Source: an uncultured Gemmatimonadales bacterium
GTDB lineage: Bacteria > Gemmatimonadota > Gemmatimonadetes > Gemmatimonadales > GWC2-71-9
Direction of reading: 5' to 3'
NCBI GenBank assembly: GCA_963695555.1
Contig: CAVOGR010000001.1
Location: 1,077,716 to 1,141,715, forward strand
DNA length: 64,000 bases
The translations under genes and the position numbers were made by a program. Shown here piece after piece: positions 8,512 to 64,000 of this stretch (the stretch's first letter is position 1; each line of letters starts with the position of its first letter). The notes below the pieces were generated by a model. The model was not told where the DNA came from, searched no databases, and saw nothing but the letters and a program-made list of their open reading frames with translations.

Positions 8512-9594
8512 GTGAGCCAGTCAAACCAGCGGCCGGTCGCCCGTGCCTGGGCGGATGTCGATCTCGGCGCGATCGTCGCCAACGCGAACACCGTGGCCTC
8601 CGTTTCCCAGAGCCGCCTCTTGCCGATGGTCAAGGCCAACGGCTATGGGCTGGGTGCGGTCCAGGTCGCCGGGGCGCTCGAGTCGCTCGACCCCTGGGGA
8701 TACGGCGTCGCCACGCTGGCCGAGGGGGCCGAACTTCGGTCGGCAGGCATCGATCGGCCTGTCGCCGTGTTCAGTCCGCTCGTGCCGGAGGACGTCGCTG
8801 ATGTGCTCCGGCACGATCTCCGCCCCGCGATCGGCGACCTTCCGGCATTAGAGGCGTGGATCGGTGCCACTGACCGGCCATTCCACCTCGAGATCGATAC
8901 CGGCATGGCTCGCGCCGGACTGCGCTGGCACGACGCCGACGCGTTGGCCCACGCGCTCCGGCTGGTGGCATCGGCACCCGGGTGGGAAGGGGTCTTCACG
9001 CACTTCCACTCAGCCGACACCGACGACTCGGCGACGACCACGCAGTGGGAACGGTTTCACAGCGTGCTCCAAAAACTGCCCCGGCGGCCGGCCTTGATTC
9101 ACGCGGCCAACAGCGCCGCCGCACTCCGTGGCACCCGCTTTTCGGGCGACCTGGTCCGCCCCGGGATCTTCCTTTATGGCGGAGCGGTGGGCGGTCACGA
9201 GCCGGCGGTGGCGGTTCGATTGCAGGCTCCCGTGGTGTCGCTGCGAACGATCAGGGCTGGCGATACGGTGAGCTACGGCGCGACCTGGACCGCACCGGCT
9301 TCGACTGAGATCGCAACGATTGGGATTGGGTACGCCGATGGCGTGCCCCGCGTGCTGGGCGGTCGGACCGATGTCGAATTGGCCGGCGCCCGCCGTCCGC
9401 TCGTAGGTCGAGTCACCATGGACCTCTCCATGGTTGCGGTCCCGGCCGGCACGGTCCAATGTGGCGATGTGGCGACGGTCTACGGGGGACTCGTCTCCCT
9501 CAGTGAGCAAGCTGAGCGAGCGGGAACCATTTCGTATGAACTGCTGACCGCCCTCGGAGGGCGGGTACCTCGACTCTACCGGCACCGATCATGA
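8512..9594 (+). CDS. alr: Alanine racemase
   Basis: MVKANGYGLG PLP-lysine motif, HLEIDTGMAR, IGYADG, GRVTMD and GTISYELL. GTG at 8512 chosen to avoid overlap with mazG. Confidence 0.96.
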   Translation: MSQSNQRPVARAWADVDLGAIVANANTVASVSQSRLLPMVKANGYGLGAVQVAGALESLDPWGYGVATLAEGAELRSAGIDRPVAVFSPLVPEDVADVLRHDLRPAIGDLPALEAWIGATDRPFHLEIDTGMARAGLRWHDADALAHALRLVASAPGWEGVFTHFHSADTDDSATTTQWERFHSVLQKLPRRPALIHAANSAAALRGTRFSGDLVRPGIFLYGGAVGGHEPAVAVRLQAPVVSLRTIRAGDTVSYGATWTAPASTEIATIGIGYADGVPRVLGGRTDVELAGARRPLVGRVTMDLSMVAVPAGTVQCGDVATVYGGLVSLSEQAERAGTISYELLTALGGRVPRLYRHRS

Positions 9595-61324: not shown

Positions 61325-61863
61325 AGTCACTGGTCAGGACCCAGGACCGCCGATTCTTCCCATGTGAAACGTTTTGCCTCGCGCGTCCCCCGCGGGTTGG
61401 GCTCTAGGCGCCCCGGTCTCCTGACCGTGACGCCCTGAGCTACGCCGCCCATGCGGGTGACGATCCCTGACGCCCGCGCGCTCCGCTTGCCGGAAAGCCG
61501 TTTCCATCCCCTCGAAGCCGCGTCTATCGCGGATGGTCCACCGGGCGCGGCTCTGGTCAAGGACTACTCGTTCCTGCGTTCCTCCTTGACCAGGGCCTTG
61601 ATGCGCCGATGGCCTTCATCCCCGACGCGGCTTCGACGGGATGGTGAAGGGGCCAGTGTTTGACTGGAAGGGGAGGGGGTTGAGCGCTGCGCGCGACCGG
61701 GTTGGATGCGAGAGTCGTTTCCTCTCTCGCGCTCTCTCCCGACGCTCACCAACAGGATCGGCGGGGCCAGAGCAAGCGGGGAAACAGGCCGAAAGAGTGC
61801 AGTGCTGTATGTAGTGCTGTATAATCTTCCCCTTCGTAACAACAACGAGACGGGATCTTCGCA

Positions 61864-62577
61864 ATGACCCAGCAGGTTCTTTCCCTTCCCGGGATCGGCT
61901 CGACCACCAACCGGTTCTCCGGCATCCGGGTTACCGATCTGACCGCCGACGAGGCGGATTCGACCATTGCCCTGGCCCTGTCCGTGCTGGCGCGCAAGCA
62001 TCGCCGCGGGGCCGCGTTGACCAGCCCCGAAGCAACCCGGTCCTATCTCCGCCTGGAGATCGGCGAGCGTCACAATGAGCTGTTCGGTGTCCTGTTCGTC
62101 GACAACCGCCATCGCATCATCGCGAAGGAAGATCTCTTCTTCGGAACCATCGACGGGGCCTCGGTACATCCGCGGGTCGTGGTGCAGCGGGCCTTATCCC
62201 TTAACGCCGCGGCGGCGGTCTTCTATCACACAACCATCCCTTATGTTGATTTCGTGGTGTCAACCTGCCCGTCTGTTACCGCCGCCCCCCTGGGGAGGTC
62301 GCCGAAAGGTGCCATGGCATCGGGCTACTCGCCTCTGATAGAGGCTGGGCTACTCGGGCATGACGCAGTGTAGGAAGTGCCGATGGAGAGGCCAATCAGG
62401 TTGACGAAAGCGAATGCAACCTAACACCCCTCGGGCGTCGCCGAGCCGAGCCAGGCAGACATCCGGATTACGAGCCGGCTCAAGGAAGCCCTGGGCATGG
62501 TCGACGTCCGGGTGCTCGATCACTTCATCGTCTCCGCGGAAGACTCTGTCTCGCTCGCGCAACGGGGTCTGGTCAGA
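61864..62577 (+). pseudogene. radC: Short RadC-like JAB-domain protein (MGE type), interrupted at HNHPSG
   Basis: LTSPEATR.YL, E.FGVLFVDN.HR, GTIDGASVHPR.VV..AL..NAAA..FYH | [31 protein letters not shown]. Confidence 0.92.
62241..62424. mobile_element. 184-bp non-autonomous element inserted in radC
   Basis: Bipartite terminal inverted repeats at 62241-62267 and 62397-62424, flanked by CATCCC and CACCCC; no recombinase gene. Confidence 0.8.
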
Positions 62578-62636
62578 ACAAACAACCGGAGAGGGCGGCC
62601 TCGCGCCGTCCATCCTGCACAATCGAGGAAAGCGCC

Positions 62637-62923
62637 ATGTCCGATCGTTCCTTCTTCGGTCCTTTGCCGTGAGACCTGCCGGGCTTGCCGCGGGTCGGGC
62701 GTCGTCGTCAATCCGGTATGGGACCGCTACTTCACGGAAACTGACGGCACGGGGGACCCGGATCTGTGGGCGCGAGCCGTCGGGTTCGGCTCGGCCCTGG
62801 AGGTCGGTACGGAAGAGATCCCCTGCGAGGATTGCGAAGGGGAGGGCAAACGTGCAGTATCCCGTCCCGCTCGCCGAGGCACTGGCGATCTGTACCGAAC
62901 GGAGAGAGACAACCCATGTTTGA
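62637..62923 (+). pseudogene. Small protein with two CxxCxGxG zinc-finger half-sites; frameshifted
   Basis: GAGGAAAG SD and ATG at 62637; CRACRGSG and CEDCEGEG in a second frame; VPLAEAL end in a third frame. Confidence 0.55.
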
Positions 62924-62996
62924 AGACGCTGACCTGATCCACAGCTACACGCGTGCCGATGCCATTGAGGACGGCATTGTTGAGGTCCTTTGCTAG
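62916..62996 (+). pseudogene. N-terminal fragment of a small ICE/plasmid protein (DUF6573-like)
   Basis: [20 protein letters not shown], followed by abrupt loss of the frame near 62975. Confidence 0.55.
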
Positions 62997-63972: not shown

Positions 63973-64000
63973 GGTGTTGGGCGCGCGCATGGCGCCCGCT

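Follow-up and report, generated by a model that had tools for sequence, protein, structure and literature searches.

Near the right end of the window, the whole 64,000-nt stretch of DNA that was analysed, a radC gene is split by a 184-bp insert. The Pfam RadC profile (121 positions) matches the 5′ piece of the gene at positions 1-71 (E 4.7e-16) and the 3′ piece at positions 73-121, and the break therefore lies inside the HNHPSG motif, among the codons of the catalytic site. Around it the coding sequence reads ...AAAAVFY, then CAC ACA ACC ATC CC, the 184 bp, and CAC CCC TCG GGC, which resumes as HPSG. An earlier note on this DNA had described a 184-bp insert placed precisely in this motif and flanked by CATCCC and CACCCC, with bipartite inverted ends and a 10-bp direct repeat around a small hairpin; all of this is seen in the sequence, and the insert lies at 62241-62424. 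The features, in window coordinates, are as follows.

61864..62240, plus strand: 5′ part of radC, with its ATG at 61864, running up to the His-Asn-His-Pro codons
62227..62232, plus strand: CACACA; by alignment to intact radC, a CA repeat has gone from 2 to 3 units, and the two added bases put radC out of frame
62235..62240, plus strand: hexamer CATCCC, adjoining the intA-distal end
62241..62424, minus strand: gene-less mini-element of 184 bp; the element orientation is reversed, with the intA-proximal end at the right
62241..62267, plus strand: intA-distal terminal repeat TTATGTTGATTTCGTGGTGTCAACCTG, 27 bp, matching the distal ends of relatives L021 (22/24), L019, L052, L058, L024 and L078
62268..62316, no strand: middle stretch of about 49 bp, which holds the deletion junction; the 17-sequence alignment A4 diverges here
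62314..62373, plus strand: 19-codon ORF with indels in relatives and no conserved start, judged not to be a gene
62317..62424, minus strand: conserved non-coding region of the intA-proximal end, about 108 bp, with invariant blocks in 17/17 sequences of A4
62322..62331 and 62347..62356, no strand: two copies of the 10-nt direct repeat GGGCTACTCG, flanking the palindrome GCCTCT-GAT-AGAGGC
62366..62373, no strand: conserved box CAGTGTAG (CTACAsTG on the element strand), conserved columns in A4
62397..62424, plus strand: intA-proximal terminal repeat CAGGTTGAC-GAAAGCGAATG-CAACCTAA, common to relatives upstream of intA
62425..62430, plus strand: hexamer CACCCC, adjoining the intA-proximal end
62425..62577, plus strand: 3′ part of radC, HPSG...RGLV (Pfam RadC 73-121 of 121, E 5.2e-15)

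The split radC gene and the anatomy of its insert

The closest intact radC is that of the Thioflavicoccus mobilis plasmid pTHIMO01, with 77% DNA identity over the 5′ part. Aligned to it, the window radC has two surplus bases within CACACAAC, and its codon 62575-77 is AGA where the pTHIMO01 gene stops, so that the frame continues to 62937. The prolonged frame enters a small zinc-ribbon-like ORF. Because of the extra CA, the window radC is left out of frame after any precise excision of the insert. That these bases break the frame had been recognized before, but the idea of a plain sequencing error fits poorly with two contigs from public metagenome runs. One of 247 nt from run X2 is identical to 62148-62394 with the extra CA included, whereas one of 187 nt from run X3, which belongs to a different study, is identical to 62217-62405 minus two bases at 62227 (depth below 3 in each case; the runs provide contigs only, and either may be the source sample). 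The extra CA is a polymorphism that arose after the insertion, or else one of the assemblies is in error.

Since these contigs reproduce the radC-insert junction and the insert itself, the insert is real. The region does lie near a contig end in a metagenome-type assembly, but an assembly artefact is ruled out by the independent contigs from X2 and X3. The companion possibility was a structured RNA, for example an intron or a ribozyme; a search of 61800-62700 against Rfam gave no match at E ≤ 1, the DNA fold of the insert was unremarkable and no better than shuffles (z −1.35), and the ends recur at 94 loci among the matches listed. We give the pair of explanations, artefact or RNA, practically no credence. 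Many contigs from other organisms in public runs match only 62425-62460 and read ...GCGCACAAC upstream of it; these are uninterrupted radC genes of other strains. Among the low-depth contigs of four public runs, none joins across the insert and none contains a circular junction, which has no bearing on excision; in run X1, which had the best coverage, the insert itself is uncovered.

The left end of the insert consists of TTATGTTG (62241-48), 10 nt and GTCAACCTG (62259-67), and the right end of CAGGTTGAC (62397-405), 11 nt and CAACCTAA (62417-24). Between the two ends the boxes match at 7/8 and 9/9 positions, the inner pair being a perfect inverted repeat of 9 nt. The spacers, previously described as not conserved, are in fact partly conserved (ATTCGC). 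All the invariant blocks of A4 are kept in the window copy, namely the terminal TTAGGTTG, the GTCA(A/C)C box, CTACAsTG and AGAGGCGAGTAGCC. In this alignment the 5′ arm of the small palindrome is variable, with no compensating changes, while AGAGGCGAGTAGCC is invariant, and we therefore read the GGGCTACTCG repeats that flank the palindrome as putative protein-binding sites, which is probably a better description of this sequence pattern than a hairpin. The 19-codon mini-ORF pointed out in the earlier note does exist, but the indels in A4 argue against its being a conserved gene.

Full-length relatives and their assignment to the SE type

Plasmid BLAST with the insert alone returned a Paraburkholderia end, a 27-nt chance match at E 0.6 and nothing else. 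With radC and the insert together as the query, window positions 62324-62426 were 75% identical to non-coding DNA of the Paraburkholderia plasmid, and the similarity stopped exactly at CAACCTAA. Four genes lie beside this match on one strand, and their products measure 394 aa (an integrase), 580 aa, 638 aa and 136 aa (unannotated, with a weak match to DUF6262). BLAST of the Paraburkholderia end against plasmids found itself only. When genome contigs were scanned with the Paraburkholderia IntA, 42 loci were recovered, with identities of 38-88%; their hosts are Burkholderiales (Paraburkholderia, Rubrivivax, Ideonella, Piscinibacter), Steroidobacteraceae and further proteobacterial MAGs. In most of them xxxxxx|TTAGGTTGCATT...GTCA(A/C)C precedes intA by about 450-470 bp (the loci with a call range from 328 to 576 bp), and this end is the reverse complement of the right end of the window insert.

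The delimited full-length elements measure 5,672-9,294 bp and encode intA, a Tfp-like protein of about 580 aa, an IntB-like recombinase of about 640 aa and a small HTH protein; for the elements of the Rubrivivax group, distal ends were not found within the 10 kb examined. By BLAST, the right 105-125 bp or so of the insert are 73-82% identical over 103-132 nt to the proximal ends of at least 24 full-length elements, and the left 30-40 bp or so match the opposite end of L024, L021, L019, L052 and L058. Positions 62268-62316 gave no BLAST match to any locus. As these 49 bp or so in the middle match nothing, the deletion endpoints are unmapped and no parent is identified. The search for larger elements with the same ends, recommended in the earlier note, was thus successful: tyrosine recombinases lie between the ends, and no DDE gene was found there. 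The proposal that the insert is a gene-less, internally deleted derivative of a tyrosine-recombinase element agrees with these full-length relatives, which have the same ends and the same radC site.

Two other traits of the relatives were observed. In L018, L021, L044, L046, L047 and L055 (about 8676-9020), intA is preceded by a conserved ORF of about 112 aa that runs into the start of intA; this ORF belongs to no Pfam family, and the window copy has lost it. A complete radC-like gene of the element's own is found 255-281 bp from the distal end in five of the ten delimited elements (L042, L046, L051, L055 and L057). All five are inserted in radC, the L055 target being a chromosomal radC beside coaBC, and the element-borne gene has the motif HPHPSG instead of HNHPSG in every case (5/5). 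It looks like a replacement copy with altered target codons.

Profile alignment by hhalign of IntA against genes 2 and 3 gave only a 29-column match (the H..Y motif) and an insignificant N-terminal match, and the catalytic residues were therefore read, by eye and from invariant columns, with the help of alignments to curated proteins of SEs (strand-biased circularizing integrative elements). In these columns IntA keeps R220, K250, H326, R329, H362 and Y371, and the protein of about 638 aa keeps R300, K334, H430, R433, H457 and Y467 together with a cysteine cluster. The gene 2 protein of about 580 aa, which lacks a Pfam integrase match, has AGNPEP at the place of the box I arginine and keeps only R386, H409 and Y418. 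Because this arginine is missing, the non-catalytic protein stands second, as in SEs (intA-tfp-intB-srap). By tblastn, the 580-aa protein matches inside two CDSs, NZ_CP029096 252354-253970 and NZ_CP033067 78429-80081, both listed as SE tfp (Idola et al., PMC10214605, supplement file 3). Against Pseudoalteromonas SE proteins, hhalign gave 98.6% for Tfp (E 5.7e-16, 404 columns) and 98.5% for IntB (E 3.7e-15, 483 columns), and BLASTP of the small protein against Srap gave E 2e-5. Judged by these protein comparisons, the parent family is homologous to SE IntA-Tfp-IntB-Srap.

Homologues of the 638-aa protein are present in 185 plasmid records, including Agrobacterium (32), Pseudomonas (32) and Sphingobium (22), and the four-gene module occurs at about 35% identity on many plasmids, with the gene order verified in Methylocella and Ochrobactrum. 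In L016 and L017 and on alphaproteobacterial plasmids (Agrobacterium, Sphingobium, Mesorhizobium, Methylocella, Ochrobactrum), where it is common, this module has other end sequences.

Target sites and flanking hexamers

An end was counted as belonging to the family if both the terminal and the internal motif were present. Among the matches listed this gave 94 family ends; genomes contributed 30 of them, and a metagenome scan by end pattern the other 64. The scan used one exact pattern and covers the best 80 of 92 loci. Flanks were considered readable from 12 nt upward, as is the case for 87 of the 94 ends among the matches listed. Among these, again within the matches listed, 27/87 adjoin radC, recognized by HP(S/T)G, and 27/27 continue with the RadC motif HPSGxxxPSxxD; 45/87 lie in a second gene that opens with (H/T)PYLxMPS (L026-L041 and many metagenome loci), and the remaining 15/87 are in other places. 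The proportions among targets are biased, the metagenome pattern having been modelled on the betaproteobacterial end type. L051 and L053 are also in radC, with a shorter proximal region, and fall outside the count of 27.

The proximal hexamer is CAYCCN in all 27 radC insertions among the matches listed. In the (H/T)PYLxMPS gene it is CAYCCC or ACGCCG; Pfam searches of this gene and of the Paraburkholderia target found no family. At the opposite, distal end, ten loci read ...HNHP|TTATGT.., and in seven full-length insertions in radC a CAYCCN hexamer stands on each side. Both hexamers are complete in eight elements, these seven and L021, which occupies another target. The two members of the pair are identical in five of the eight (L046, L051, L053, L055 and L021) and one base apart in three (L019, L024 and L057). 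Such flanks of 6 bp, CAYCCN and sometimes one base apart, resemble those of Tn554/SE-type elements and are in keeping with the earlier view that they are not a true duplication.

The metagenome contig L078 (4,746 bp) reads ...GCAACCTTA-CACCCC-TTATGTTGATTTGG... at 690-760, so that a proximal end is joined to a distal end via 6 bp; the junction is CAACCT(T/A)A-CACCCC-TTATGTTG. A circular form or a tandem pair would give this arrangement, and the circular junction end-CA(C/T)CCC-end predicted in the earlier note is seen here as end-CACCCC-end. At L120 (650-740), radC retains only about 30 bp of a proximal end, in frame (...HHHATMLTLANATL|HPSG); this is a different, smaller scar at the same radC site.

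Origin of the insert and comparison with known elements

From 0 to about 57 kb, the window has long intact ORFs, ClpB for example. Between 57600 and 64000 the genes around the insert are broken: besides radC there are a fragment of a DDE transposase, an AAA_14/DUF4143 ATPase that is split, and a DUF6573-like ORF cut down to a stump of 26 codons at 62917-62996. From 57.6 kb on the window is syntenic with Thioflavicoccus pTHIMO01, and this part is a decaying plasmid/ICE-like segment. The insert is single-copy in the genome. Neither the insert nor full-length ends were found in 60 relatives and 400 sampled genomes of the same class, and when Tfp-like and IntB-like profiles were run against the genome, which is 87% complete, the best matches were to two generic recombinases, at no better than E 0.001. 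The metagenome end scan, which is blind to gene content, yielded 54 signature ends with at least 600 nt of interior among the matches listed; 52/54 of these show an IntA N-terminus and are full-length, the exceptions being L093, which is rearranged, and L112, which is unclear. A comparable mini-element, that is, one with a distal end nearby, was found at 0/54 of these metagenome ends among the matches listed.

These counts bear on the suggestion that the insert is a MITE-like mini-element, mobilised in trans, which hops between radC alleles and by its excision restores His-Pro, as a reversible switch for a JAB protein. In favour of this, the insert has lost neither of its terminal repeats, neither hexamer and none of the conserved internal motifs, and such an intact set of cis motifs would equally suit an element that can be mobilised; HNHPSG would be restored by excision whichever hexamer stayed behind. 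The contigs of two further metagenome runs contain the identical insert, one of them without the CA frameshift, and could represent the same strain or a mini form that persists and spreads. With 87% completeness and a contig that ends at 64000, the window end, 1.6 kb downstream of the insert, recombinase genes could also lie in unassembled DNA or on a plasmid. Nevertheless, we consider mobility and switching improbable: there is one copy in the genome and none in the relatives or the same-class genomes, no cognate recombinase was found in the 87%-complete assembly, and 0/54 unbiased family ends among the matches listed belong to a mini-element. Against a switch there is in addition the extra CA, which leaves the window radC out of frame after precise excision, and, in the part of PMC10214605 available to us, the strand-biased attL × attR recombination of SEs is reported without an empty site.

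The insert is very likely the gutted remnant of an SE-type site-specific transposon, now an inert scar in a radC pseudogene. A dead relic of a deletion in situ, within a decaying plasmid-like segment, is the most likely reading. By analogy with its family and with SEs, GInts and Tn554, the parent would have entered radC through a tyrosine-recombinase exchange in which the 6-bp spacer between its joined ends recombined with the His-Pro codons (CAYCCN) of HNHPSG, and would thereby have left one hexamer on each side. For SEs, the available text of PMC10214605 describes the hexamer at the intA-distal end as a spacer imported from the previous site and that at the intA-proximal end as the target's own central 6 bp. 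If this rule applied here, CACCCC would be radC's own hexamer and CATCCC would have been carried in from a previous radC; within the same text, the import rule, the strand bias and the missing empty site are published for Vibrio SEs only. Comparison with the relatives shows that all four genes were lost through a later internal deletion, probably a single one in place, of at least about 5.5 kb; the 27-bp distal end and about 108 bp of conserved non-coding proximal end remain. The insert would now be immobile, the cognate recombinases not having been found in the assembled genome.

A more far-reaching joint reading seems to us unlikely. The window would then contain the first miniature SE, with a full cis set (the 27-bp distal end and the proximal end of about 108 bp with two GGGCTRCTCG repeats) that a full-length relative can still move in trans; its parents would be an undescribed SE clade beyond the published host range, and their radC specificity would derive from a common ancestor with Tn554. 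If this were true, the targeting of JAMM-motif codons in radC would be ancient and common to the Tn554/SE superfamily as a whole.

SE-type elements are an established class; no description was found of the clade that targets radC or of the miniature form. Literature searches combining radC with SE terms found nothing, no description of a miniature SE was found in the SE literature, and none of the papers holding the SE phrase, among the matches listed, is on radC by title or abstract. The terms radC, remnant, miniature and non-autonomous have 0 occurrences in the text of the SE host-range paper as far as it was available, with its supplements covered in part (PMC10214605).

The remnant in the window points to a little-described mobile-element family that aims at one spot in radC. 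The definition of SEs dates only from 2018-2023; resistance genes are among their cargo, and the chemistry by which they transpose is unsettled. Through this locus and its relatives, SE-type elements acquire a precise, easily recognisable target, the His-Pro codons of radC HNHPSG, and the family now reaches Burkholderiales and, at a greater distance, alphaproteobacterial plasmids. The mini-element marks out a natural minimal cis set that could serve as a substrate in recombination assays, and the radC target common to Tn554 makes a common origin of target choice testable. In annotation, a split radC with TTATGTTG...CAACCTAA between HNHP and HPSG can be read as an SE-type insertion or scar.

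Origin from another class of element, whether a RIT trio, a GInt, Tn554 proper or a DDE MITE with target duplication, is largely refuted and in our view very improbable. The ends do start in a TTATG/CATAA-like manner, and a RIT insertion in the radC of an ICE is mentioned in the accessible part of PMC3414803. RIT elements, however, have 34-bp terminal repeats and three adjacent catalytic tyrosine recombinases of 315-410 aa (PMC10214605 and PMC3414803, from the portions available), whereas the relatives encode four proteins of about 394, 580, 638 and 136 aa, the second without the box I arginine; the parent family is not RIT, to whose ends the earlier note had likened those of the insert. DDE MITEs occur in many copies with a true duplication and have DDE parents, whereas the insert is single-copy, its hexamers are unequal, its parents encode tyrosine recombinases and there is no DDE gene between the ends. 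Like CIMEs and MITEs, the insert keeps both recombination ends without an enzyme; unlike them, it shows no sign of mobilisation or of an increase in copy number.

The GInts (ginABCD) are similar in having a four-gene operon for three recombinase-fold proteins and a small helix protein. They integrate site-specifically, their flanking repeats are imperfect, and junction variants point to staggered cuts of 6 nt (Bardaji et al. 2017, PMC5385486). The protein without the first arginine is third in GInts but second in the radC clade, and hhalign of gene 3 against a GInt-listed 708-aa protein, a single truncated GInt copy, found no similarity (0.8%). The Tn554 family (tnpA-tnpB-tnpC; Staphylococcus, Enterococcus) is also site-specific in radC, with 6-bp sequences instead of a true duplication, and truncates the gene in its 3′ region, according to the available parts of PMC7371108 and bioRxiv 10.1101/2020.09.30.320143. 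The target common to Tn554 and this clade is radC, compared at the level of the gene. Tn554 has no Tfp counterpart in the account given in the accessible text of PMC10214605 and has Firmicutes as hosts, whereas the radC-clade relatives have a Tfp-like second gene of about 580 aa.

Compared with SEs themselves, the radC clade differs in several respects. Its proteins are only about 23-30% identical to curated SE proteins, and its terminal repeats are about 27 nt long as against 13-19. Its hosts are Burkholderiales, with remote cousins on alphaproteobacterial plasmids, whereas the SE survey, in the portion of PMC10214605 at hand, reports no Tfp or Srap homologues in Alpha- or Betaproteobacteria. 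The window element is without any gene, so the core order intA-tfp-intB-srap is missing here, but the full-length relatives have it, and three of their four proteins have detectable homology to curated SE proteins. The relatives also resemble SEs in their imperfect terminal inverted repeats, their target specificity, the end-6 bp-end junction seen in L078 and their 6-bp, possibly unequal flanks, and the window insert itself retains the imperfect terminal inverted repeats together with the 6-bp flanks CATCCC and CACCCC.
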